A DNA stretch of 64,000 nucleotides from a virus (Duplodnaviria > Heunggongvirae > Uroviricota > Caudoviricetes), in IMG/VR virus record IMGVR_UViG_3300037400_003880. The stretch is one strand, 5' to 3'. How positions within the stretch are numbered: the first letter of the stretch is position 1; the number at the start of each line of letters is the position of its first letter. A program made the translations under genes and the position numbers. This document shows positions 3,092 through 62,728 of the stretch, one piece after another. The notes beneath the pieces are model-generated. The model did no database searches. It was given only the letters and a program-made list of their open reading frames with translations, and was not told the origin of the DNA.

Positions 3092-6000
3092 GAAAACATT
3101 GGTACTGCAATGAAAACCATCATTGCAAGATTTACAGAGTTAAAAGAGAATGTTAGTGAAGCAGATTCTGAATTTGATGATCTTAGTTATAATAAAGTTG
3201 ATGATGCATTAAAGAGTGTTGGAATTAGCTTGAAAGATGCACAAGGACAATTTAGAGATTTGGATGAGGTATTTCTTGAACTAAGTTCTAAGTGGGACAC
3301 TCTTGATAGAAACACATAGAGATATATTGCAACTATTGCAGCAGGTTCTCGTCAGCAATCACGTTTTATTGCGATGATGGAAGATTATGATAGAACTATG
3401 CAATTGGTAGAAGTAGCACAAGATTCTGCTGGACGTAGTGAAGAATAGTTTGCTAAATATTAGGATACTGTTGAGTATAAAATTAATTAGCTAAAAAATA
3501 GTTGGGAACAATTTAGAACTAGTTTAATTGATAGTAATATTTTTAAAGAAGCTATTGATTCTTTAACTGGTTTTGTTTAGGGTATTTAGAAAATAGATTT
3601 TAAAAAGTTAATTCCTATGGCAATTATTGTCGCTCCGTTGGTAAAGAATTTATTTACTACTTTATCTAAAAATTTTTAGAATGCCCATGCATCCATGAGC
3701 AATTTGGGAAGAATCTTTACAGATGGTATAATTACAGGGATGAATGGCGCGGGGTCAAAAATTGCAAAGAAGATTCTCAATATAAATCCTTCTGATTTGA
3801 ATAAAGACGTAGGTGCAATAGAGCAAAAATTATAGGAAATAAATAAGAAAAAAGAAGAAATTTCTCAAAGGAAAGTTAAAATTGAGATTGATCAAATGAC
3901 GCTTCAATAGCTAGAAACTTAGCTAAATTCTCTTGTTGGAAGAAAGGATAAAGAAGCTGAATAGTTAACAGATCAATTAGTAGGAGATATTGAGAAATTA
4001 AGAAGAAAAATGGAAGAAGCAAAACCTACTATGGACAGCTATGACAAAAGTTTAGATGGATTAGAGAAAGAAGCTAGAGAGGCAGACGAATAGTTAAAGA
4101 AATTAAAGTTAGATTAGAAGCGAATTAATAATCTTTCTGGAGCGATAACTTCTGGTTTAGCTTAGGTAGGAACATCATTCTCGTTATTTGCTACGGCTTT
4201 ATTTTCTGGCGCTTCTGCTGCCGATAGTTTTAAACTTGCTTTAGGTTCTTTAGCAACAAGTGGTTTGAATTCTGTTCTTCAATTAGTTCCTTAGCTTATC
4301 ACAAAATATACTCAATTAACTCTTGCAGCATAGGCGACTGCTGCAGCAAATACAGAAGCCGCGGTGGCAGCTAAGGCTGCGGCGGCGGAGGCAGATGTTG
4401 CAATTGCATCGACAGGAGTCGGACTAGCTATTATTGCAATAGCTGCGGCAATTGCTGGATTAGGTTTGGCATTAAATGAATTGTACCAAAATTATAAAGA
4501 AACTCATAAGACACTTGATGAATAGATTGAGGAAGCTGAAGAGCGTCTTAAAGAATTAGAATCTAATGAAAATGAAAAAAAGAATTCTTCTAAAGAAGCT
4601 CAAGAGCAAGTTAAAAATACCGAAGACTTAATATCTAGATATGATGAATTAAGTAGAAAGCTTGTTAAGACAACGGAAGAATAGGAAGAATGGACATAGT
4701 TAATTGCTGATATTAATGAACAATTCCCAGAAATAGTATCTTCTTATGATGAAGCAAATGGGAAGATTAGTATATAGAGAGACTTATGGCAAGATATTGT
4801 TGATTTGCAGAAAGAAGCTGCCCAAGACGCTGCCCAAGAATCATTAATTGCAACTGCGGCAACAATTGGTCAAAAGAGAAGAAATGCGTAGTTATCATAC
4901 GCTTAGGCTGTAGATAAAGCTAATGGAGATTATGGCCTTAGTGAGACAAATACTTTAAATCGAAATTTTTATAATGAATTAATAAGCAAAGCTTCTTTTG
5001 ATATAGGGAAAAAAGATTATGAAAAGATAATTAGAGATGCAGCATCTGCGTAGGGCGTTGACTTAGAAAAAATAAATATTGCTTTTGGAAAAATTGGACT
5101 GACTTCAAATGAAGAATGGGAAAGATATTATAATGAATTAATAGATAGGAACTCAGATGGATGGGACACTGTAAATAGAGAAATAGAAAACATTTCCTCC
5201 TCCGCAGAGGAAACCTATTAGAAACAAATAGAATATTACAATGAACTAGAAAAGTAGAGTATTTCATCTTATTTATAGACTGGCGGAACTGAAAAAGGAG
5301 TCGCAGATTTAATTGCCTCTGGTGCAGCAGCTTATAAAACTAGAAATGTTAATTAGTTTAATTTAAATACCGTGGCAACTGCGGATGAAATTTATAATTC
5401 AAGCGGGTCTGTGGAAAGAACTACTTTGAAAGCTGCAACAGCAGGCATTTCTGAAGCATTTTTTGTCTCAATAAAAACAATGCAGACAAATGATTATCAA
5501 GAATGGAAAAAATTAAGTTCAGACTAGAAGAAGATTCTTAAAAGTATGGGATATGAAAATGAGTAGGCTTGGGAAGAGGCAAGAAAAGATTTAGCTGATG
5601 ATACTAATTTTGCAAAAGAATATGCAGAAGCTGCTTATATGTATAATGCAGAAAAAATAGCAAAAACATTAGATGAAAATCTCAGTTAGGCGCAGCAAGT
5701 TTTTATTAATGACTATATGACTAATTACACTACTATGACATAGAGTGAGATGGAATTTGCTCAAAAAACTATTCAAGGATATATTGATTCAATTGGAAAT
5801 GATGAAGATAGAAAAGTTTTACAAGAAGGATTAAATAACTGGGAAAAATAGTTCAAGGAAGAAAAACAAGAAATAGCTTCGCGTGTAAATAATTTTTTAG
5901 ATAATAATGTAAATGATTTTACTAATTGGACTATTGAATAGTTGTAGGCTTATGATACTTTAATTCAAAATGCAATTGATAGACTTGGAGCTGGAGCTGG

Positions 6001-8977
6001 AAAAGTTTATTCACAAGAAGTATACTCTTTATTTGATGATAAAAATCTTTCACCTAATTAGATTAATCAAGCATTAAATTCAATTGCTTGGGATTCTGCA
6101 ACAGGAATTAATTGGAATGATTTTAGAGAAAGTAGTATAGCGACCCTAAGAGAGCTAGGTATAGCAGGAGCGGAAGCATTCTTTGATCAGTGGGCAAAAG
6201 TTGAGCGTAAATATGGAAATTTATCTACTACACTTATTGGTGAATAGGTTACTGAATATTTAGATAATGTTAAAAAGATTACTGATGCAATCACCTCAAA
6301 TAGATCTGATATTGCTGAATTAAGCGCGAAAGTAAATTAGGGAATGTCTCTTGATTTTGATGAATATCAAAAATATTCTAAAGCTATTGAAGAAATGGGG
6401 CTTTCTGTTGAAGACTATTTATCAATAGATAAAAAAGGAAATATTGTTGCTAATACTAAAAATATAACTGATTTATTTGATGAAGCATATAAAAAGTAGA
6501 TTAAAGATATTGAAGACCAAATAAGTATGTTAGATGAAGAAGAAAAATCAAGAGAAAGCTAGCTTCAAGCACAATATGAATTAAATGTAGCTGAAATTAA
6601 TCATAATAAAATTTTGGAAGAAGGCGTGCGTTTATCTTTAGCTCAAGAAGAATCGGCATGGAGACAAGCAAGATACAAGGCTGAAACAAGAGGAGATTGG
6701 AACGAAGTAGACCATGCAGAAGCAGAAATAGGAAGAATTAACAAGCGTATGACAGAAAGTCTCCAAAAAAATTGGGATGAATAGCTTGCTGATGAAAAAA
6801 CTCGACTCAATGAAGCACTAGTTGCAAATCACGAGTCAAGAGTTAGCAGCGAAAAACAACTTAATGAGAGAGTAGGGCAACTTAGAAAAGAACATTTGGC
6901 TAATTTAAAAGTATATGATAAAGAGTTTGCAGAAGATACAAAAAAGTTAATAGATGATGAAAAAAAGAAAGTGGATGATGCAGCAAAAGCAGTAGACGAT
7001 GCTCAAAAGAAAGTTAAAGACGCATTAGAAAAAATTGCGAAGGCTGAGCAAGATGTAATTGATAAAACAAATGAATTGAATGAGGCTCTATATGGAGATC
7101 CTCTACATAAGAATAAACTTGATCCACTTTATAATTACAATACTCAACTAGAGCAATTTACTAAAAATGCCACTAGAGCAAAAGAAGCACTTTCAAAGAT
7201 GTAGCCTGGTGACGATGCTAGGTCATTAATTAATGATTTCTTAACAAATACTCATGGAGAACTAGTTAATAGACGTTCTCAAAATGAAGTTATAGCTGCA
7301 TCTATTGCTAATTATCAAGCTGATTTAACTTCAAGATTATCTGCTGAACTTGCTAGTATGAATGCTCGTTATGGAGCAAGCATTAGCACTAATACTTCTG
7401 ATTACATCTATTAGAATGGTAATCGAGTTGGTATTAATTTCTAGGCATTAAATGCAGCGAAACTTCCTGATTCTATTTCAGATTACGTAGAAGAAACAGT
7501 TGAAACAATTAATAAATTGCAAGATTAGATAGATGATAATGTTGATGAAATTAAAAAGAAAGAGCAAGAATTAAGAGATATGAGGAAAGATGCGCTTGAG
7601 AGAAGAAAATCTCTTGAGGATGAAGTTGTTAAGACATTACAAGAAAAAGCAAAAGAAGAAATTGATACTTAGAAAGATAAGTATGATGCATTGAAAGATG
7701 CTGATAATGATTATCTTGATGCTTTAGAAGATGCGATAAAAAGAGAAAGAGATTTAAGGAATAAAGCGAATGAATGGGATAGCTTAGCCACAAAAGAAAA
7801 GAAACTTTCTCTTATTCAAAGAGACACTTCTGGTGCGAATGAAAAAGAAGTTATGAAGCTTGAAAATGAAGTTCAGAATGATAGAGAAAAATTGTTAGAT
7901 GAAAGTATTGACGATATTATTAATGGCATGAAAGAGATGTATGAACTTCAGCAGGAAAGTAGAGAAATTGAAATTGAATACCAAGAAGCGATGCTTGAAA
8001 ATGCTGACACAATTAAAGCTGCTACAGCGATAATCGAGGGATGGCATACAAGTGATGATTTGGTAGCTTGGTTTGTTGAGAATGCTACTAAGGAGTTTAC
8101 TGAAGGCTCAGAAACTACAAAAGAAATTATGATTACCGAATGGCAAGAAACTGGCGACCAGATGGTCGCAGATACAGAACTTCTTCAAACAGATATTATG
8201 TCCGCGGCAGAGGTTACTTAGGAGCAGATTACTACTAATATCTATAATACAAGTGAGATATTAACTTCACAATCTCAACTTACTCTTGATACAGTGTTAG
8301 CTTCTACTAATGATGCTATTTAGAAGGGGCAACAGGCATTGGCTGATGCAATTGCTAGCGTTTAGGCGGCGAGAGATGAATATTCTGAAGCTATTGCAGC
8401 ATTAAGAGAAGCAGAAGATGCAGCAAGGTAGGCGCAGGCTGATGCCGAGGCAATGCGACAATCATTGGAGTAGCAATCTGTGGGAACACCGGTATCAGCA
8501 GGGTTATCCTCTTTCGCTACTAGTGCTTTTGGACCAATAGGATCTGAAGTATTGAAGCTTGGTGATCATTAGGCTGTAAAGGATGAACTTGCTCGCATTA
8601 TTAATGCAGGTCATTATTCTGATCAAGAACGCGCAGCATTGAGAAATTAGTTGTCTCATTATGCATCCGGTGGCTTAGTAGACTATACCGGTCCTGCTTG
8701 GGTAGATGGTACGCCGTCTCGACCGGAAGCTTTCTTATCCGCAGAAGATACTCAACGTATAGGTGAAGCGGCATAGCTACTTGCTGACTTGCCAATCTTC
8801 AGCGGCGACTCATTCAATAGTACGTCGATAACTAATGGAGATAGCTTAATCGAAGTTCACATTAATATAGAGAACATTGCTAGTGATGTAGACCTTGATA
8901 ATGCTCTTGATAAGATGAAGAGTGCAATTTGGGAGGCTGCAAATCCAGCAGGCTCATCAGTTATATTAAGCAAATAA
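3092..8977 (+). CDS. Tape measure protein, exon 2 (spliced product ~2539 aa)
   Basis: Track ORFs 3110, 6896, 7691 and 8789 share one frame and are separated by TAG in the stretches I read; C-terminal HYASGGLVDYTGPAWVDGTPSRPEAFL motif typical of TMP ends. Confidence 0.9.
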
Positions 8978-23467: not shown

Positions 23468-24383
23468 GATGAGAACTTTTAATTTTTTTAGGATCTTGCT
23501 TCAGAAGCACTCTTAATTCAGATGGAACATTTACCACGTTCGGGTAGGTAGTAATAAAAGATTCTCTGCTTGCACTTTTTAGCCATTCAATAATTTTCTT
23601 ATCTAAATCATCTACCGGCTAAGGATGAAATGGAAACTTCATTCTAATTCCAGCTTTCTTATAAAAAATACCCATCTTAACATATCTTAACTGATAATTA
23701 AGAATTGTCTCTTCTGGTCTTTTTTCAAATTTAAAAATGACAGAAGGATTAGAGAAGTTTTCAAAAAAGAAGTTTTCATCATATCTGAAATCTATTATGA
23801 TATAACTATTGATAAGTGCGCAAAATCGTTCAAATTTATAGAAAGTCTCGGCATCTTTTACCCATAACGGATGATAAAAATTAAAACGATGATTTTTAAA
23901 ATCAAGAAGGCAATCATACGCACCATCTATATAAAAGAAGTTATGGTCAACGAATGTCATTTTCATCCTATCTTTCTTATAATCACTAAAATCATTTGAC
24001 TCTAAACGAATCAATGAATTCTTTTTTAGTTCATCATATGACTAATTAGGAATTGATAGCTTATAAGATACAGGATCATAGAGGTCATAAGATGGTGCGC
24101 ATTCTGCCATTTCAGGTTTTAGTGGAGAATAAGTGTTATAGAATCCATATCCATATACTGTTTTCTTATCGCCATTAAGAATTAAAGAACGAGGAATTTG
24201 AGTGTGAGGATTGTCTTTAAAATAGATAATAGAGTTGTAGCGTCCCTCATTTTCTTGCGGGCGCATCATTTTAACAATCTGATTATTATTCTTAAAATAA
24301 TGATAGATTTTCATAAGTTCGAGGTTAGGGGCTGAACGCCCCTTATGCCATAAATCAATATCATATAATCCTATAGTAGCCAT
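23445..24383 (-). CDS. Hypothetical protein related to phage PNLxLMK radical-SAM-associated proteins, no CxxxCxxC (312 aa)
   Basis: Track ORFs 24042..24383 and 23619..24014 are in frame and joined by TAG; N-terminus IGLYDID...APNLELMKI. Confidence 0.6.
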
Positions 24384-26580
24384 TATTCTTCAACCTCCAC
24401 TCTTTCTGTTGCCGATTCAATAATCCAGCCCTTATCATCAAGAACATTGATTTTCTCAAACAGCGGCCACTCAGTGTTCTTATACTTCTTCGGAATGAAA
24501 TTATCCCCACGTCGCATACCAGTTACAATTAACTTAGTACCTCTCTGGAACCAGCTCTTTTCAACAACGTGCTTTACGCCATCTGAACCTCTTTCAGAAA
24601 TCTGCTTATCCCAAGCTGCAAACTGATTCTTCCATACCTTTACCGTAATGACACCAGTAGGTGTTAAAAGAATAATTGAACTTCTGTTCTTATCCTTGTC
24701 AATTACAGTTCCTGCAATTCGAGTAATCTTAAACATAGTGATTTCAGAACCATCTTTTGTTGTAAAGGAACGCTCAACTTCTGGCTCTTCAGGAAGTTTC
24801 ATAGCATCGCTAACTCCATAAATATCATTTCTCAAATTTTGCAGCTCATGGTCATGATAGTAAAAACCAAGACTATCCATTTCCCATTTAGATAAATTTC
24901 CTTCTGCATATTTATCCCAAATTTCTTTCAATAATTTCTCATTCAAATTATTTAGGATTTCTTCTTGATATTCCTTCATCCAAGCTCGAACTGGATCCAT
25001 TCCCTTCTTATAAATATTGTCCCACAAATTTTGCTTAATTTTTGCAAATTGTTCATTCCCTTCGACTCTAACTTCTTCAAGTTTTGTATCGTCATAATTC
25101 TCCAAATAAAAACGCATTGCAATTGTATCTAAGTCATAATAGATTCCGTCTTTAAAACTCTTAAGATACTTATTAAAATTAAACAACTTGCACTCAAATT
25201 GAAGCTCTGGCGGAATCATATCTTTTGCAATAAGCATCTGCATATTCTATAAGGTAATTCTTTTTTTCTTATCTGATACGCTTTCAAGATATAATTCCAT
25301 AACTTTTTTTCTGTCACCATTATAAAGTTCATCAAATGCACCCGCCTTTATCAAGGCAATCATTTGGAGCTTATTTACCTTAATCTTTTCCAAGAAAGTC
25401 TCAATTGAATCATAAGGTCTGTTCTTAAAAATGTCATAAACAAGTTGAGTGCCAATTCTGTTGATACCTTTCATACCATAAATGATTGCGTTTCTGTTAA
25501 TATCCGGTTTGAAAATTAAGTCGGAAAGGTTAATATCCGGAGGAAGTACTGTAATGCCTTTTGTCTTAGATTCACCTATCGCCGCACTAATCTTACCATA
25601 GTTAACGCTCTTATTTTTAACCTTAACGTCTTCATCATCATTTACGTCATCAGCATCAAGCAGGTCGGCACCACCGGCATTAACAATTAAGCACGCACAG
25701 TTCCAATAAATTGCAGGATAATTTGTTGCAAGATATAGAGTCTGAATACCTACAAATGAATAAGCAAGAGCATGAGGTTTTGCAAATGCGTAACCCATTT
25801 GAGGTCCCATTGTTGTTTCCCAAACATACTCTCCAAGATTCCTGTTTGGGCATTGAGATACGAACTTCTCTTTTAAAATAGGAATTTCTTCCATATGCTT
25901 TTTTGCGACTGTCTTTCTTGCCGCATTCGCTTCTTTCAAAGAAAAATGAGCTAACTTTTCGTCCATACAAACCATCATCAAATCTTCCTGAGATGCTGGG
26001 ACACCATAGTTTGGAAGATAATATGGTTCAAGAATTTTAATTTCCTCTTCGCTTAATCCTCTGTTCTTTACTTCTTGATACCAATAATTCATATTTGACT
26101 TCAATCTACAATATCTGTCAAGAGGGCGTTCTTTACCTTTTTCTCCCATCAGTCTCATAAGTGCATTTGCGGAAGTAAGCTCTGCCGGGTTCTTTGGCTT
26201 TATCATTTTTGCAGTTGCTAATCCTACACCAGTGCTAAACTGGAAGACATCAAGAACTTCACCTTTACCCAGAGCATCCCATAATCTCTGGTCATCAAGA
26301 TTAAGTTTAGATGGGTGAAGATAACTGTCATAGATTTCTCTTAACTTCTTTTCCTTTGGAACAATTCCATCCTTCTGCATCAACTCAATACAAGTCGTAA
26401 TTTTATCACAGATTTCAGTTACAAGAAAGTCATACTTAACGTCTCCCATTGCCTCGGCGTCATGAAGAGAAAACTGTGTTGTCAAGTCTCCATTTGGGCT
26501 CCTCATAATCGCACCAGTATCAGTCGGATTATTATTATAAAGAATAACACCAGATGCGTGCTGACCTCTTTTATTTACTA
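24383..26580 (-). CDS. dnaE: DNA polymerase III alpha subunit, exon 3
   Basis: (L)VNKRGQHASGVI, KYDFL, GYAFAKPHALAYS, OB-fold RIAGTVIDK; one internal TAG at 25247-25249. Confidence 0.93.
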
Positions 26581-28139: not shown

Positions 28140-28997
28140 CTTTTTACACCCTCGGTTTCCCGATATTTATTAGGGGAATAGACTATCTCTTTAGGACTTT
28201 CGTCCATAATAGGCACTACGGAATGGCATTCATCTCCACTCCTCTTAGAGATTTTACAATCTCAATTTAGTCGTTACACTTTTTAAACTCTAATCTATAT
28301 CCTCTGGACTTATAATTTTTTCTCATTCCACTAATGCTACAATTGAACTTTTCATTGGCATATTCTGCCGCAGCCTTAACGGATTGGAAAGATTCAATTT
28401 CTACATTGTCACTTTCTCTTATTAAGATGCACTCTCTGAAATTCCTTGTAGAACTCATTGTGTTATAACTATCATAAAGATTATTTATTCGATTACTCCA
28501 CTCCAAATTCTCTACTTTATTATTTTGTCTATTTTTATCTTTATGATTCACTTCAGGTAAATTATTTGGATTTGGAATGAAAGCCTCTGCAACTAATCTG
28601 TGAATTAAGAAATGGTAAGTTATATTATCTTTACATAGTTTAATATTTTCATAACCAGATTTTTGATACCAAGTTTTCATTATTCTTGGTTCTTTAAATT
28701 TGTAACTGATAACTTTTCCATCATCAGTTATTGTATATCCAGGAAAATCTTTGATTTCTTTTTCCATTCTATCACCTCGTTTATAAAGTATTAGAATGAG
28801 ATAAAATCTTCAACTTTTCCAGAAAAATAGATAAAGTTTAACTTAGCACGGTATTAACTGCTATCCTTCTCAGGACCGTAGTCTCTCTTACGAAGCTGCT
28901 TCGTGCATTGCCTTATTCCACTTCTACCGTTAGCCTTCAATTAAGAAGACACCGCTGAATGCGTTCACCTATTTTATACTGCCCAATATTAAAGTTT
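28140..28997 (-). mobile_element. Group I intron 1 in dnaE
   Basis: P1 ACUGCCU/GGGCAGU; P CTAACGGTAGAAG, Q AATACCGTGCTAAG, R TGTAACGACTA, S AGAGATAGTC; ends in G; splicing restores RVELP|DIDID. Confidence 0.92.
28267..28767 (-). CDS. Intron-encoded HNH homing endonuclease (NUMOD4-HNH type)
   Basis: GYTITDDGKV...IHRLVAEAFIPNPNNLPEVNHKDKNRQNNKVENLEW; stop overlaps the R element. Confidence 0.92.
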   Translation of the reverse strand: MEKEIKDFPGYTITDDGKVISYKFKEPRIMKTWYQKSGYENIKLCKDNITYHFLIHRLVAEAFIPNPNNLPEVNHKDKNRQNNKVENLEWSNRINNLYDSYNTMSSTRNFRECILIRESDNVEIESFQSVKAAAEYANEKFNCSISGMRKNYKSRGYRLEFKKCND

Positions 28998-30365
28998 AGG
29001 CAGTTCTACACGTTCTTTATTCAAGAATCTCCAATAAGGGAGTTCCCAAACTAGCGGATCAAGCTGAGTAATGCCTAATAGGTAGTTTGATAAGAAACAT
29101 ACAGAAGAACCACGTCCCGGACCTACGATTGAGCCGCACTCCCAGAACAAATTAATAAAATGCTGGAAAGTATTAAAATACTTGAAAAGACAATCTTCAA
29201 GCTTATCTCCAATTGTCTTAATTACATCTGCTTCAATTTCAAGTCTTTCAAAATATTCATTTTTACTTAACCTCTTTTTCTTAAGAGCATTAAGACATTC
29301 ATTGACCCAATATCTCTCTTGAATATTTTTACTACTAAGCAAACCGCTTAAAATAGGATACTTCTCTAAAAAGTCTATATCAAAATCATATTGAGCTTCA
29401 TAATCCTTAACCTCAACTTCCGGAATGATAGATGGTCTTTCAAGTTCAAAAGACTCAATTTTATCATAAATTTCCATTGAAGCCGCACACATTTTCTTAA
29501 ACTCATCTTCTGTAAAGGCAACTTTAAGATTTTCATACGCTTCATCATTATCCATCATATGCGCATCAAAATAAAATTCATCAACCTCTCTATCGCCTTC
29601 CTTTGAATTCAGATAAGCTTTATGAAGAGGACGCTCTTTTGCTGTCAGATAATGAGCATCGGAACCAATTACAATTTTCCTATTATATGCCTTTGCAATC
29701 ATTCCAACTCTTTTATTGAATTTAATTTGATCCTTTGATTGACCTGCGGCGACTTCAATATAAAAGTCTTCTCCAAACAAATCAATATTCCATCGAATAA
29801 ATTCGTCAATATCGCATTTGCACTGATAAGCTACTTCTGCGTCGTTCTGTCCTTCAGCTTCAATTAACTTCAAGACCCTTCCGCCTAAGAAACCACCAAT
29901 ACAAGCTGTTGTTGCAATTAATGAATTCGGATATTTCTCAACAATTGCTTTTAGTTCTGACATTTGAGTTGGAACTCTTGTCATACCACGAGCTGTAAAA
30001 CTATAATACCAAGCAGTTGAACTTAACTCTCTTAATGCCTTGTGCCCATCAGCATTTTTTGCAATTAAGATATAGTGCCAATATCTCTCAATATTCTCTC
30101 GGTTCTCAACTAGATAAATTTCATTTCCACACGCACATTTAAAATCTTCTGGAATTGCGCTGCTAGCCTTTAACTTCTTTTCTGCCTGTAACCACTTCAA
30201 ATGTCCACTTAAACATTCATGATCCGTTAATGCAAGTCCGCGCATTCCTAATCTTGCCGCTGTCTTAATCATGTCTGGAATCTTATTGATTGAGTCAATC
30301 AAACGAATGTTGCTATACTCACTGTGACTATGAGTATCAAATCTTGCTACTCCATTTAAGCTCAT
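28998..30365 (-). CDS. dnaE: DNA polymerase III alpha subunit, exon 1 (PHP domain; spliced product ~1305 aa)
   Basis: HSHSEYS, ALTDHE, GSDAHY, GPGRGSS, RFLNKERVELP. Confidence 0.94.
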
Positions 30366-56579: not shown

Positions 56580-56665
56580 ACCCGATTTTTTTAGATAAAA
56601 AGAAAAATATAAATACTTTTAAATGAGCGCAATGCGCGTGATAAATAAAAAAAGAGGTGATTTTT

Positions 56666-57775
56666 ATGGCTTGGGATTGGGATGAGACAAAAACCCCTAG
56701 ACTTTCTATTATTAAGATTGGTAATGAAACCTTCTATGTGAAAGATGCTGAAGCACGTGCAGCTATTGATTCTATTACTGCTACTGTCGGCGGTGTAATG
56801 CACTGGAGAGGTATTTCTACTACTGATCCTACTACTGGAACCGTAACTATTGATGGTAAGGTACTTACCCCTGAGGCTGGTGATGTTGTTGGTTATACTA
56901 TTGGTAGTGGAGTTTCCGCAACTCAACTTGAGTATGCTTACAATGGTTCTACCTGGCAAGAATTCGGTTCTACTGGAACGTTAAAGGCACTTGCTTTTAA
57001 GGATAATGCAACTGGTTCTTTTGTTCCTCTTGGTGAAATTACTTCAGCTACATTTACAGGAAATTAGCTGACTTCTACTGGTACCTTTACTCCTGCTGGT
57101 ACTATTTCCGCGGAATTTACTGGGGATACACTTACCTCTACTGGTAACTTTACTCCTGAAGGTTCTGTAAATGTTTTTGCTGTTGAGGCAGGAATAGGTG
57201 ATACTGCAAACTATACTCCTAGTGGTACTGTAGACGGTTCTTTCGTTGGAGCACGAATGACTTCTACTGGAACATTTACCCCGGCAGGTACAATCTCTGC
57301 TCCTACTGTAACTCCGACAACTGGTAGCGTTGCAGAAGTTGACCAAATTAATACTGTAGTTTCTGAAATTCAAAATGCAGTAAAAGCAAGTGCAAATTCT
57401 GCGACTGAAACACTTACATTTACTACTCTTGAAGCTTCTGACATTACAAAAGTTGCAGCTATTACTACTAAGTCTGCAACAGTTCTTACTGATGTAGATG
57501 TTGCCGCACCTACTTTTACAGGAACAGAAGGAAATGTTTCTGTTTCTGGAACTACAGCAGGTTCTCTTCAGGATCTTAGCTTCTCTGGAAATGGGGCGGT
57601 TATTACTGCTACTTTCACAGGAACTCAAGGCAATGTATCCGTTTCTGGAACTCCAGAAGGAACTATTTCCGCAGACTTTACTGGAACTCAGGGCAATGTT
57701 TCCGTAGCTGGAACTCCTACTGGTTCTATTAGTGTTGTTTGGGAAGGTCAAGATACTTCTGTTACTGTTTCTTAA
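56666..57775 (+). CDS. Thr/Gly/Ser-rich repeat fibre or adhesin A (369 aa)
   Basis: One TAG joins track ORFs 56657 and 57257; FTGTxGNVSVxGTPxGTIS repeats. Confidence 0.8.
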
Positions 57776-57849: not shown

Positions 57850-59148
57850 ATGCCAGATAAATATATTTCAAAGGTGACCGCGAATGGCTAGCTTTATAAC
57901 ATTAAGGACGCGAAAGCATGGGCGGATATTGAAGATTTAAAAACAAGTGTCACTGGTGCTATGCACTATATTGGAATAGCTGAGACTGCAATTTCTGATG
58001 GTTCTACCACTAATCCTATTACAATCGGTGGAAAAAGTGTAACTGCAAAGGCAGGAGACGTTGCAATTTATGGAGAATTAGAATTTGTATGGAGTGGCAC
58101 TTCTGGTAAGTGGCAAGAATTTGGTTCAACCGGCTCTCTTAAAGCTCTTGCTTTTAAGGATAGTGCTTCCGGTTCTTATACTCCTGCTGGTACTGTATCT
58201 CAGCCTACCTTCGCTGGTACAGAGGGCGATGTAAGTGTAAATGGAACTGGAACAATTAGTGGTCTTACTTTTACTGGAGATTGGAAAAAGTTTAGTGGTA
58301 CTACTACTGCTACAGGTAATGTAAGCGTATCTACTAAGACCACATCTAATCAAACTGCTACTGTATCTTCTACTACAGGAACAGCAACTTATACTCCTGC
58401 TGGTACAGTATCTCAACCTACTTTTGATAATGGTTCAGTATCTGCATCTGGTGAGTTTACTCCTGAGGGTAGTGTAAATCTTTCAACTACTTCTACTGTT
58501 CTTGAAGTATCTAAGGCAGCAAGTGGCACAGCAACTTATACTCCACAAGGTTCTGTTTCTGCACCTACAATTAGTGTAGCAACTGCCGGCGCGACCACTA
58601 CTGTAAATTCTATTACCGCGGTAGGAACACTTCCTACATGGAACGCAACTGTAGATGAAAACACTGAAACCCTTTCATTCTCTTGGAGTCAAGGAACTCT
58701 TCCTACAAAGGGCGAAAATCAGACTGTAAAGACAGGTGACGCTGCATATAGTGCTTCTCAGCCAAGCTTTACTGGAACAGGCGCAAGACTTACTGCAACT
58801 GCATTTAATCTTCCTACGAGCGCAGACTTCGTTGGAACAGAAGGAAACGTTTCTGTTACAGGTACTGCAACTGGTACAGTTTCTCAGCCTACATTCTCTG
58901 GAACAGGCGTTAGACTTGTTACTGGAAATATCGCTGTTCCTGCTACTTATGAAGCAACCTTTACTGGTACTTCAAGTGATGTTGCTATTACTACTGAAGC
59001 TGCAACCTCTTCTACTGGAAATTATCAGCCTACTGGTACTGTTTCTGAGGGTAGCATTAGTGTTACTGCTGGTGGTAAGTTTACTCCAGAGGGTACTGTA
59101 TCTCAGCCAACCTTCACTGGAACTGCCGCAACAGTTACTGTTTCCTAA
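57850..59148 (+). CDS. Thr/Gly/Ser-rich repeat fibre or adhesin B, paralog of A (432 aa)
   Basis: GAGGTGA RBS; one TAG near the start; shared WQEFGSTGxLKALAFKD; YTPAGTVSQPTF repeats. Confidence 0.82.
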
Positions 59149-59176: not shown

Positions 59177-59205
59177 TTGACTTTTTATAAAAAATTTGCT
59201 ATAAT
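59177..59205 (+). promoter_or_regulatory. sigmaA-type promoter upstream of the DGR cassette
   Basis: TTGACT-17-TATAAT with TG. Confidence 0.82.
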
Positions 59206-59266
59206 TTAATAGTAAAATAAAAGTAGGACTTTGTTTTATGTTCTCTTTAAAAATATAAAAAAAGAG

Positions 59267-59300
59267 AAGGGGATATCAAAAGATTGATATCCCCTTTTTA
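59267..59300 (+). terminator. Strong intrinsic terminator between that promoter and the DGR target gene
   Basis: AAGGGGATATCAA-AAGA-TTGATATCCCCTT then TTTT. Confidence 0.8.
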
Positions 59301-59365: not shown

Positions 59366-60898
59366 ATGGCTAATGAAAAATATATTAGTAAAATTAATGT
59401 TAATGGCGACACTTATGAAGTAAAAGATTCAAAAGCCAATGAAGTTGAAATTACAACAACTGATACAACTCCAACAGATGAAAATGTTGAAATGTGGGTT
59501 AATTTAGGACAAAAACATACGGTGTATATTCCAGAAACTGCAACGGACGTAAGCTATAATAATTCAAAAACTTTACTTGATGCAAATAACCTTCAGGACG
59601 CGATTGATTCAATTGCAGAAGTTATTCACCCTACATTAACAGTTTATGCAGAAAATGGAACTGAACTAACAATTTCAAGAGGAGACATCACTATTGAAGG
59701 AACTGTTGAATCAAATAGCTTTACAACTAATATTCCTCAAAAAGGAGTTTGGAATATTGAAGCGACTTATGATGGTGAAACTAAAGCTACGACGGTAAAT
59801 GTTCAAACTGTAAAAAATTATAAGGTTTATATGCTATAGGCATCAATTTGCGGTGTTGAATGGGGATTTACTGGAAACTCATTAACAAGAACTGATGACA
59901 GTGCTTTATTTACAGACCCAGTTCCATATGTAAATAATGGAGAAACTCCTGGTTCTTCTCCGTTTGATAATCTCTATCCTTGGAGTGAAATGACTATTGT
60001 TACTCACAATGGAAATTCTTTAGTTAAAATACCTAAATTTTGGTATAAGATGGAAAAAACAGCTTCTTCACTTTCAATAAAAATTGCTAGTAAACCAGCC
60101 GAAGGATTTAAAGTAAGTCCCGCCCATAGAGATAGAGGAGAGGGAGAAAAGAATTATGTTTATATTGGAAGATATCATTCAGATTCTACTTATAAGTCTA
60201 CAAGTGGAGTAAAACCAATTAGTAGTATAACTAGAGCTACCGCAAGAGCTAATACCCATGCTCTTGGAGAAGAGTACTGGCAATTAGATATGAGCCTGTG
60301 GATAACTATTTGGTTACTTTATTTGGTTGAGTTTGCAAATTGGAATTCTCAATTAACAATTGGATATGGTTGTGGTGGAGGTTCTAGTGTTGGAAAAGAA
60401 AATTCTGGCTCGACTGATTCAATGCCATATCATACAGGCACAATGCAAACCTCAAGAACAACATATGGAGTTGGAATTCAATATAGATATATTGAAGATC
60501 CATGGGCCAATGTACTTGATTGGGTTGATGGAATTACCTTTAATGGTGCAAACATTTATGCTTATGAAAGTCCAGATCAATATTCTGATAATTATGCTAG
60601 TGAAGGCGCAGTTCTTGTAGGAACTAGACCGACCTCTTCTAATTATATTTAGAATTGGAATATTAGTTCGACTAAAGGTTTTGATTGGTTTATGTACCCT
60701 AGTAGTGTTGGTGGTTCTACAAATCAAGTACCGGATTGCTGCTACTATGGTGCTGGTGGTGTTGTGTTGTTGGTTGGTGGTCACTATTACTACCAGAATG
60801 CGGGCCGCGGGTTGTTCTGCTTGGGCGGTGGCTACGCGGCTTCTGGCTCGTACGGCGACGTTGGCGTGCGACTACAACGTATTCCGAAAAGTAATTAA
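59366..60898 (+). CDS. DGR target protein: fibre/adhesin with C-terminal C-type-lectin-fold (Mtd/FGE-like) variable domain (510 aa, 2 TAG=Gln)
   Basis: Track ORFs 59366, 59990 and 60692 are in one frame; VKIPKFWYK, YIGRY, YRYIEDPWANVLDWVDG; VR at the C-terminus ending GVRL. Confidence 0.9.
60731..60874 (+). repeat. DGR variable repeat (VR)
   Basis: 144-nt copy of 61044-61187 with 24 mismatches, 23 at TR adenines. Confidence 0.96.
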
Positions 60899-60906
60899 AA
60901 ATATTA

Positions 60907-60973
60907 AAAGTGCTCTGCACTTTACATAAAAGACACAGTAAAAAGGTGACATAAGTTTAGTTCTTAACTAAAC
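60907..60973 (+). promoter_or_regulatory. Two short hairpins downstream of VR/IMH (candidate target-recognition cruciforms)
   Basis: AAAGTGC-TCT-GCACTTT (60907-60923) and GTTTAGTT-CTT-AACTAAAC (60955-60973). Confidence 0.6.
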
Positions 60974-61043
60974 GTGGGGATGATTACACAGTCATGTTCA
61001 TGTTTGGTTCTCCTTCTGTTTTATTCTAAAAAAATATGAAAAA

Positions 61044-61187
61044 CCGGATAACTGCAACTATAATGCTGGTGGTGTTGTGTTGTACGTTGGTGGTAACTAT
61101 AACAACCAGAATGCGAACCACGGGTTGTTCTACTTGAACGGTAACAACGCGGCTTCTAACTCGAACGGCAACATTGGCGTGCGACTA
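61044..61187 (+). repeat. DGR template repeat (TR)
   Basis: 14 AAC/AAT codons in the VR frame; diverges from the VR after GGCGTGCGACTA (IMH*). Confidence 0.96.
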
Positions 61188-61320
61188 ATTAATATAAATC
61201 TTCTTAATTTCTTATGTGTAATCATTCGCTCACCACTAGGTGAAGATTATGGAATATAACGTAGCTTAGTAGGTTAATTCTCGAAAAGCTACAATCCATA
61301 TTAATTAAGGAGTTGAAAGA

Positions 61321-62385
61321 ATGAAAAGAGTTGGCTATTTATGGGAAAAATTTTTGGATGATGAAAATATTTTAAAAGCAATAAAGGAAGTAAATAAAAC
61401 GCATAGAACTAGTCACGGAAAAAGAAATTTGGTAGTGAAAAGAGTAGAAGAAAACCTTGAAGATAGTGTTAAAACTTTAAAACAAATTGTTAATAATAAT
61501 TTTATTCCAGCAAAGGCAAAAGAAAGAATAATTTTTGATAACAGTGCATAGAAAGAAAGAGTTATCCATGAGCCGCCATTGTGGCCTGATTAGTATATTC
61601 ATCATATGTTAATATAGGTTCTTGAACCAATAATGATGAGGGGAATGGATTACTGGTGCTGTGCATCTATTAAAGGACGTGGAGTAAAGAGAGGAATTAA
61701 AGGTATTAAAAAATGGATGAAAGATTCTGTTAATACTGCCTATGCAGCAGAATTAGATATTTATCATTTTTATGAAAGTCTTCAGAAAGATGTTGTAATG
61801 AATCGAATGAAAACTTTGATTAAAGATAATAAGATTTTAAATTTTATTAGCGTACTCATTTCCGATGGTATTAGTATTGGAGCATATTTTAGTTAGTGGT
61901 TTGCCAATACTGTTCTTTAGGTTTTAGATAATTTTATTCGATAGAAATTAAAAATTAAGTATTACATTCGTTATATGGACAACTTCACACTTTTTGATAA
62001 AAGTAAAACATATCTTCATTTTTGTATTAAATAGATAAAAATAAAACTTTCTCTTTTAAATTTAAAAATGAAAACGAATTGGTAGATTTTTCCGACAAGT
62101 AAAAGATTAGTTTGTGCATTAGGTTATCGTTATGGAAAAAATTTTTCTTTATTAAGAAAAAGATCTCTTTTCAAACTTAAAAAGCATTTAAAAATAGTTT
62201 ATAAGAAAATTAATAGTAATAAAAGAATAAAAACAAAAGTTGCGGCTGGTCTTATTTCAAGATTTGCACAATTAAAATGGTGTAATAGTTATTAGTTAAC
62301 TCATAAATATATATATGATAATATTATTTTAAAAATGAGAGAGCTAATAGGAAGCAGAAGGAGGCGATTAAATGTTGGATTATAA
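61321..62385 (+). CDS. DGR reverse transcriptase (354 aa, 9 TAG=Gln)
   Basis: RVIHEPPLWPDQYIHH, LDIYHFY, GISIGAYFSQWFAN, YIRYMDNF; directly downstream of the TR. Confidence 0.93.
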
Positions 62386-62728
62386 TTTTGGAAAAATTCA
62401 ATATAATGGAGAAGAATGCCAATTCCTGAGAACTAAGGGAGAAGAAACTTCTTATGAGAATGGAACGTATCAAACTTTTTCTTATTAGGATAATTTTATA
62501 AAAAAAGATGAATCTTGTAAAATTATAAGAACAATTAAGAAAGATAGAGATACAGCGGGAAATTATTATACTTGGTATATCATTGAAGATTACGTTGAAA
62601 AAGTAAATAATTTCCCTGAATATGATTAGAAAATTGAGAAAACAAATGCCGCAATTGATTATCTTTTTATGATGGAAGGATTTGATCCATTAGATAGCGG
62701 AGATGATAATTATGAGTAGAATGTATGA
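62372..62728 (+). CDS. Hypothetical protein after the RT (118 aa; XkdW-like tail-fibre assembly partner?)
   Basis: GGAGG RBS; DRDTAGNYYTWYII; ends TNAAIDYLFMM; precedes XkdX. Confidence 0.6.

Follow-up and report, generated by a model that had tools for sequence, protein, structure and literature searches.

A recently active diversity-generating retroelement that rewrites a tail-fibre tip in a TAG-recoded bovine gut phage

Layout of the locus and meaning of TAG

Positions 59366-62385 of the window (the whole 64,000-nucleotide stretch analysed here) hold, all on the plus strand, the gene of a 510-aa tail-fibre protein (59366-60898) that ends in a variable repeat (VR, 60723-60874), a non-coding template repeat (TR, 61036-61187), a structured spacer RNA (61231-61308) and the gene of a 354-aa reverse transcriptase (RT, 61321-62385). 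Together they form a genuine diversity-generating retroelement (DGR) that has been active recently and rewrites the tip of the fibre protein. Its source is a cattle-gut phage (bovine gut metagenome) that encodes a tape-measure protein, a split PolIII-alpha, DnaB, RecJ, topoisomerase II and NrdD, and whose polymerase is closest to those of SPbeta-like phages. We consider it very probable that the element is complete, lacks Avd and belongs to the tail-fibre module of a large tailed phage that reads TAG as Gln (code 15). The same order of target, TR and RT was found again in 56 related loci. The target protein itself had no match in IMG/VR, and the JGI metagenomes yielded a single 1.6-kb contig (L081, 59% identity) that carries no TR.

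When genes are called with code 15, 59366-60898 stays open for 510 aa, as the initial annotation had proposed, and 61321-62385 for 354 aa with nine TAG codons (starting at 61549, 61591, 61615, 61894, 61918, 61942, 62032, 62083 and 62293). The initial annotation had also stated that standard calling breaks both genes, and with table 11 the longest ORFs in the RT frame are indeed 76 and 87 aa, and the target is cut into pieces of 157 and 220 aa, the second of which ends at the TAG at 60650-60652 (the other in-frame TAG of the target is at 59837-59839). On the 183-kb JGI/IMG contig only the 220-aa target piece and the 76-aa RT piece are annotated. The claim that recoding hides the element holds for such code-11 annotation, but not for the Logan/ENA gene calls, which contain the full 510-aa and 354-aa products, and the difficulty of finding DGRs in recoded phages is already in print (PMC12386605).

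TAG lies in frame at conserved Gln positions and is not used as a stop. All 50 complete ORFs in the window end in TAA or TGA, while single genes contain up to 53 TAGs. RT TAGs fall on the invariant Gln columns Q91, Q192 and Q200, the target TAG at residue 429 is aligned with Gln in 21 of 44 homologues, and four TAG/CAG swaps separate the strains compared below. Production of both the RT and the complete target protein depends on TAG being read as Gln, in line with the earlier reading. No tRNA, and hence no suppressor tRNA, was found within the 64-kb window or on the 21-kb fragment of the related locus L001.

Target protein, repeats and flanking RNA

The target matches a tail protein family (phrog_5302, E 2.6e-47). 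Its N-terminus is disordered, its middle part is Ig-like, and it closes with a domain of C-type-lectin fold, at the 3' end of which the VR codes for residues 453-503 of 510. The lectin fold named in the initial annotation was recovered with an AlphaFold model (pLDDT 80.8), for which the best PDB match in Foldseek is TaqVP, the DGR variable protein of Thermus aquaticus (5vf4; E 5.7e-8, probability 1.0), and this match places the VR-bearing domain in the C-type lectin class of DGR targets. The two proteins differ in that TaqVP comes from a bacterium whereas the present target is a phage tail protein, share only 15-16% sequence identity and superpose with TM scores of 0.35-0.47, an effect of the additional domains at the N-terminal side of the fibre. 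Across the target family the AAC-templated columns hold N, S, Y, G, D or H among invariant scaffold columns. Upstream of the gene a consensus scan gave a putative promoter-like site (TTGACT-17-TATAAT with TG, 11/12 matches) on the plus strand at 59177-59205.

The alignment on which the element was first recognised was reproduced exactly, with 24 mismatches over 144 nt between VR 60731-60874 and TR 61044-61187, of which 23 lie on the 38 adenines of the TR core (binomial P = 8.8e-13 for at least 23 of 24) and the sole other one is a C>G at 60772. The homology reaches 8 nt further 5' (60723-60874 and 61036-61187), which gives 27 mismatches over 152 nt, 25 of them at adenines. In the frame of the target, all A-site changes hit the first or second base of a codon and, consistent with the earlier remark that mostly AAC codons are affected, 11 of the 12 AAC codons that the TR holds in that frame are altered in the VR. 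The last 14 nt of the VR (60861-60874, plus strand, TTGGCGTGCGACTA) are GC-rich and the same in both repeats, reading like an IMH, and past 60874 the two sequences diverge completely. By analogy with the BPP-1 paradigm this shared end may guide homing. About 33 nt past the end of the VR, a 7-bp hairpin (60907-60923) could serve either in target recognition by the DGR or as a terminator; at the corresponding place L001 carries another hairpin.

Structured RNA surrounds the TR on both sides. Thirteen base pairs join an upstream arm (60978-60990) to a downstream arm (61215-61227), both on the plus strand, in a duplex resembling the 'cPRT Stop' of Bordetella phage BPP-1. L001 shows a compensatory T>C / A>G change in this duplex, relatives have equivalent duplexes of different sequence flanking their TRs, and pairing within a locus exceeds that of swapped-locus controls (P 5e-8). 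Single-sequence MFE folding of 60966-61320 favoured a local hairpin (60970-61006) and did not give the long-range duplex, which thus rests on comparative evidence. Downstream, 61231-61308 on the plus strand is a full-length match to the Rfam family RT-18 (RF03021; 48.6 bits against a gathering score of 41.3). It lies just ahead of the start codon of the RT, and in all ten relatives tested RT-18 likewise scores above the gathering threshold at this place; the Rfam model includes neither the duplex arm just upstream (61215-61227) nor the TR.

Reverse transcriptase and neighbouring gene

The RT placed downstream of the TR by the initial annotation was confirmed as DGR-type by matches to Pfam RVT_1 (30.1 bits, cut-off 29.6) and phrog_1423 (E 1.3e-64) and by its best PDB relative, 8ub7 (E 9e-15), which ranks ahead of group II intron RTs. 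Its closest solved relative is thus probably the Bordetella bRT, 8ub7 being taken as bRT on alignment grounds. Among the tblastn matches are records of crAss-like, Faecalibacterium and Bordetella phages, in which the matched features are annotated as RTs. The (I/L/V)GxxxSQ motif of DGR-clade RTs is present as IGAYFSQ at residues 186-192, with its Gln written as TAG. In place of the canonical YxDD, motif C reads YMDN (Asn codon 61981-61983), and N221 aligns with D216 of bRT, one of the three catalytic Asp residues. The YMDN motif is shared by a whole clade, made up of the window, L082 and L001-L006, in which every member but L006 has an A-biased VR/TR pair. Among the 150 nearest 50%-cluster representatives, roughly one in five carries xxDN. 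YMDN is a conserved variant within the DGR family, found in an active clade, and is no evidence against membership. No description of YMDN in a DGR or a reverse transcriptase turned up in the papers searched.

The Bordetella bRT requires Avd. Among the ORFs neighbouring the cassette no gene for an Avd or HRDC accessory protein was found, and Avd-less DGRs are a recognised class, with Avd present in only 2 of 18 Zeta crAss DGRs (PMC12386605). An ORF of 118 aa overlaps the RT stop on the plus strand (62372-62728), matches neither Pfam nor PHROG, and is conserved beside the RT in L001 and L082 as well. It is a probable gene of the tail module, in the place of XkdW, and not a proven DGR accessory. 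As a substitute for Avd it was rejected, since in L082 it occupies the XkdW place ahead of an XkdX-like gene and since L002 lacks any small ORF downstream of its RT.

Recent activity, alternative readings and known systems

A related strain in an independent ENA assembly (L082) allowed the activity of the element to be read from assembled contigs. The two VRs differ at 24 of 152 positions, 22 of them at TR-A sites, whereas the TRs differ at 1 of 152, the spacer at 0 of 133 (RT-18 without any difference) and the flanking coding DNA at 4-9% of positions (Fisher P 6e-7). It follows that the element has been at work after the divergence of these strains, and A-biased variation among related genomes, expected of an active element in the initial annotation, is present. 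Partial support for VR variation against a fixed TR comes from Logan contigs of other studies, which show changes at the same VR positions.

Our data suggests the following course of events. The TR would be transcribed together with its flanks, and pairing of 60978-60990 with 61215-61227 would loop it out in the manner of the Bordetella duplex. The RT-18 structure would likely provide the platform for RT binding and for priming in cis, and the RT would then copy the TR to cDNA, misincorporating opposite adenines. This cDNA would subsequently replace the VR, guided by the GC-rich 3' end that the repeats share, and the outcome would be the rewriting of 12 AAC-type codons on the predicted ligand-binding face of the lectin tip, through which the fibre may bind its receptor.

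Two direct repeats of 152 nt each, 313 nt apart, could also be produced by an ordinary tandem duplication or a gene-conversion tract of the fibre 3' end, without any retrohoming. Such a process does not account for 25 of 27 differences falling on the adenines of one copy only, for the A-rich copy being non-coding and abutting an RT and an RT-associated structured RNA, or for the recurrence of this layout in the 56 related loci, and the adenine bias and the context effectively refute it. Slightly less remote, though still highly improbable, is that the locus is a relic, active in the past and now with a dead RT. The nine stops in the RT under table 11, the Asn in place of the residue aligned with D216 of bRT and the absent accessory gene would all fit a relic. 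However, TAG codes for an amino acid all through the window and stands on invariant Gln columns, the YMDN motif is kept clade-wide beside A-biased VR/TR pairs and has its xxDN counterparts among the nearest representatives, a comparison of the two translations by eye puts the conservation of the RT protein between strains at about 97%, and two strains with near-identical TRs have VRs that differ at TR-A sites. A DGR that has acted since these strains diverged is the reading we retain.

The initial annotation had further suggested that the code switch gates the diversification of the receptor. On this view diversification would occur only after expression of the phage's suppressor tRNA, and mutagenic homing would be timed to a particular stage of infection. 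The idea is consistent with a hypothesis put forward in general form by Borges et al. (bioRxiv 10.1101/2021.08.26.457843), and the RT has the top TAG share of Gln codons among the long genes of the window (9/12, 0.75), compared with 0.4-0.5 in structural genes and 0-0.25 in most replication genes. Its first TAG stands at codon 77, before all catalytic motifs, and seven of its nine TAG positions are retained in L001, the RT of which is 67-69% identical. The gate would not, however, be specific to the DGR: DnaB (4 TAGs), RecJ (4), NrdD (6) and PhoH also need read-through and, since most of the phage needs TAG, any such gate is genome-wide. Only 2 of the 14 Gln codons of the target are TAG, and the RTs of the close relatives L002-L005, which share the DGR layout, contain no in-frame TAG. 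In the 96%-identical strain (4.4% RT base differences), CAG takes the place of three of the nine TAGs of the RT, so that single TAG positions appear to drift as synonymous codons. Gating as a special feature of the DGR is thus not supported, and control of homing by the code switch is possible but doubtful. Somewhat less likely again is that the TAG load of the RT makes homing conditional on a suppressor tRNA and times it to a recoded phase with many genome copies, and that this, together with YMDN and the lack of Avd, sets the element apart as a mechanistically distinct DGR subtype.

Compared with the prototype, the DGR of Bordetella phage BPP-1 (mtd-avd-TR-Sp-brt), the active element described here shows the same adenine-specific flow of information from TR to VR, a VR at the 3' end of a receptor-binding tail protein of C-type-lectin fold, an identical GC-rich 3' repeat end and an RT that has the GxxxSQ motif and finds its best PDB sequence match in bRT (8ub7-8ube, taken as bRT by alignment). 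In the BPP-1 ribonucleoprotein (RNP), upstream and downstream RNA form a duplex, the 'cPRT Stop', that loops out the TR (Handa et al., bioRxiv 10.1101/2023.10.23.563531), as the duplex at the present locus would do. The upstream arm adjoins the TR in BPP-1 whereas here it lies about 45 nt before it, and the present element differs further in having no Avd, the gene order target-TR-RT, a spacer RNA of the RT-18 family, YMDN instead of YMDD, and RT and target genes written with TAG=Gln codons.

Recoded RTs of DGRs beside recoded tail targets have already been published, in the 'recoded persisters' of the infant gut and in Zeta crAss-like phages (Lou et al., bioRxiv 10.1101/2023.08.07.552389; PMC12386605). 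There too an RT with multiple TAGs adjoins a recoded tail-protein target, the 3' VR of which changes over time, whereas the present phage is not crAss-like and comes from the bovine gut. That recoded phages carry DGRs with TAG-laden RTs is thus a point made in the literature, and the element described here is a clean example of a kind that is not itself new. It is a natural DGR, fully resolved and shattered by standard annotation, and therefore a useful test case for code-aware DGR finders, with its activity visible from two wild strains. Of secondary interest are a clade of RTs that does without Avd and still mutagenises at A although Asn stands where the second catalytic Asp would be, and a compact RNA, made up of the TR-flanking duplex and RT-18, that is comparable with the Bordetella RNP.

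The template and variable repeats

The repeat pair proposed in the initial annotation was reproduced exactly: an ungapped 144-nt alignment of the variable repeat (VR, 60731-60874) with the template repeat (TR, 61044-61187) contains 24 mismatches, 23 of which fall on TR adenines (38 in the TR copy), and the chance probability of at least 23 of 24 changes lying on A is 8.8e-13. The sole non-A mismatch in this core, a C>G change at 60772, is a private point mutation, since Logan contigs of other runs have C there. Every A-site change affects the first or second codon position in the frame opening at 59366, and 11 of the 12 AAC codons that the TR contains in the target frame are changed in the VR. 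Self-BLAST adds 8 nt to the pair (60723-60874 and 61036-61187; 27 mismatches, 25 at A), and no further VR for this TR was found in the 64-kb window. Both repeats end at the 3' side in an identical GC-rich 14-mer, beyond which the sequences part, and a 7-bp hairpin lies 3' of the VR (60907-60923), with a different hairpin at the corresponding place in the related locus L001. A diversity-generating retroelement (DGR) in a recoded phage is a supported reading of this locus.

The same cassette is present in L082, a sister strain from an independent ENA assembly whose target protein is 90% identical to that of the window. Between the two strains the VR differs at 24 of 152 positions, 22 of them opposite TR adenines, whereas the TR differs at 1 of 152 (Fisher P 6e-7), the spacer at 0 of 133 and the VR-to-TR interval at 3 of 161; divergence is 8.1% in the target upstream of the VR, 4.4% in the reverse transcriptase (RT) gene and 9.3% in the next gene, a 118-aa ORF. 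Mismatches to the shared TR lie at A in 25 of 27 cases for the window VR and in 22 of 25 for that of L082. The simplest reading of these sequences is that separate rounds of mutagenic homing would have occurred since the strains split. In Logan contigs of three further runs, the same VR positions are changed. The predicted VR-only variation at TR-A sites was borne out on related genomes, as assembled strains and contigs rather than population reads. Other contigs of the source metagenome run, one of 21 kb, carry TR-like sequence about 90% identical to window 61053-61178, so related DGRs coexist in the sample.

The reverse transcriptase and its flanking RNA

The RT identified downstream of the TR (61321-62385, 354 aa) passes Pfam RVT_1 (30.1 bits; cut-off 29.6), matches PHROG 1423 (E 1.3e-64) and contains the DGR signature IGAYFSQ. 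Its tblastn matches include crAss-like, Faecalibacterium and Bordetella phage records, and in the matches listed the aligned features carry a reverse transcriptase annotation. The closest solved relative is 8ub7 (E 9e-15), with group II intron RTs ranking behind. We take 8ub7 to be the Bordetella phage BPP-1 enzyme bRT, because it has 328 residues and the Asp pair of its RYMDD aligns at 215/216, the residues named as catalytic by Handa et al. (bioRxiv 10.1101/2023.10.23.563531).

Catalytic motif C of the window RT (61972-61983) reads YMDN, not YMDD, with N221 aligned to D216 of bRT. YMDN is invariant across the window, L082 and the related loci L001-L006, and occurs in 9 of 80 IMG/VR relatives (L047, L049 and L050 among them), while xxDN is found in about one-fifth of the 150 nearest 50%-cluster representatives. 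The variant is compatible with activity, since most members of the YMDN clade (the window, L082, L001, L002, L004 and L005) have A-biased VR/TR pairs. In bRT the observed metal adjoins D138 and D215 (Handa et al.), an arrangement that may account for tolerated loss of the second Asp. Within the literature library searched, no paper pairs 'YMDN' with 'diversity-generating' or 'reverse transcriptase', and the variant may perhaps be undescribed. L002, a non-recoded relative in this clade, has an adjacent tmRNA gene (L002 9282-9604) and is probably an integrated prophage.

The Rfam RNA RT-18 was detected above the gathering score at 61231-61308, and lies directly 5' of the RT in 10 of 10 relatives tested. 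Just 5' of it, 61215-61227 is complementary over 13 bp to 60978-60990, 45 nt 5' of the TR. L001 keeps this pairing through compensatory T>C and A>G changes, and L002, L004, L006, L007, L008, L013 and L027 keep it with other sequences at the same two places, their arms often bounded by GGGA...TTCC. At 56 loci whose TR/VR pairs are A-biased, the two arms were more complementary within a locus than in swapped-locus controls (Mann-Whitney P 5e-8). The duplex flanking the TR is the counterpart of the 'cPRT Stop' duplex, which Handa et al. saw in the Bordetella RNP and predicted for a further 207 DGRs. Single-sequence folding favours a competing local hairpin (60970-61006) over the duplex; the two are mutually exclusive, which could reflect a conformational switch or coincidence. 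The L001 substitutions likewise preserve this hairpin. The upstream arm is about 45 nt from the TR in the window and L001 but abuts it in most relatives.

Recoding of the cassette

Reading TAG as Gln opens long ORFs in the window, such as those of a tape-measure-like protein (1955 aa, 53 TAGs) and of a different protein (1967 aa, 47 TAGs), and none of 50 complete ORFs ends in TAG. TAG codons of the RT occupy alignment columns (PDQ, SQW, LQ) where Gln is invariant across ten relatives, and the column of TAG 60650 in the target is Q in 21 of 44 homologues. L082 has CAG at three of the nine RT TAG sites and at one TAG site of the next gene, single T/C changes that preserve the residue only if TAG encodes Gln. 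With table 11 the RT frame breaks into pieces of 76 and 87 aa and the target into 157 and 220 aa, the latter ending at 60650-60652; a 183-kb JGI/IMG contig accordingly holds the target only as the 220-aa fragment and the RT only as the 76-aa fragment. In the same protein collection, gene calls from Logan and ENA include the full 510-aa and 354-aa products. The amber reading and the predicted gene breakage were thus both upheld, while the claim that the element is hidden stands for code-11 pipelines but not for code-aware ones.

DGRs of this kind are known. Lou et al. (bioRxiv 10.1101/2023.08.07.552389) found DGRs in three of three TAG-recoded persisting infant-gut phages, with an RT containing multiple in-frame TAGs adjoining a recoded tail protein and a VR that changed over three years. 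In Zeta crAss phages, whose fibres are lectin-tipped and cassettes mostly Avd-less, seven DGR RT genes were reported to be amber-suppressed, a feature said to hamper DGR detection (PMC12386605). The present phage differs from these in lineage and habitat.

It was further suggested that receptor diversification is gated by the code switch. This would be in line with the hypothesis, published by Borges et al. (bioRxiv 10.1101/2021.08.26.457843), that late genes are delayed by recoding. In no other long gene do TAGs make up so large a share of the Gln codons as in the RT (0.75, against 0.4-0.5 in tail genes, 0.08-0.14 in the three fibre genes and zero in many replication genes), and the first TAG of the RT precedes every catalytic motif. 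However, DnaB, RecJ, NrdD and PhoH also require read-through, so gating is not specific to the DGR; no more than two TAGs occur in the target, close strains swap TAG and CAG, and the close RT relatives L002-L005 share the layout with an RT devoid of in-frame TAG. We regard gating as possible but unsupported, and rather unlikely.

The target fibre and the phage

The annotation of the 510-aa target (59366-60898) as a lectin-fold fibre holds: it has a hit to a PHROG tail-protein family and over 1800 homologues, and its AlphaFold model (pLDDT 80.8; residues 1-72 poorly predicted) has as its top PDB match TaqVP (5vf4; E 5.7e-8), a DGR variable protein with a C-type lectin fold. In alignments of the family, the columns templated by AAC vary among N/S/Y/G/D/H and lie between invariant scaffold columns. 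No gene resembling Avd, the accessory protein of the BPP-1 DGR, adjoins the cassette. The conserved 118-aa ORF over the RT stop codon (62372-62728; L001 7052-7402; L082 13007-13363) has no family match, and appears to occupy the XkdW position of PBSX/SPbeta-type tail modules, since an XkdX-like gene follows in L082.

The target is the third of three consecutive fibre-like genes (56657-57775, 57850-59148, 59366-60898) and the only one with a VR; the three have in common an N-terminal motif, KYISK..NG..Y.[IV]KD, and their bodies differ. Upstream of the target, L082 has a shorter, different gene set. In the window, 59177-59296, upstream of the target gene, contains a promoter-like site close to consensus (TTGACT-17-TATAAT) and after it a GC-rich hairpin of 13 bp, scored as a terminator on the minus strand.

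The window also codes for a Dit-like protein, RecJ, DnaB, PhoH, two topoisomerase II subunits, NrdD and a ligase. An HNH/endonuclease gene (phrog_4645) appears to interrupt the tape-measure protein, leaving it in two ORFs (111-1886, 1953-2768, 3110-8977). The run in which the phage is best represented is a bovine gut metagenome. A PolIII-alpha-type polymerase, nearest to those of SPbeta-like Bacillus phages (38% identity), is encoded on the minus strand in N- and C-terminal ORFs (24383-26506, 28989-30365) about 2.5 kb apart, with two genes between them, one weakly HNH-like.
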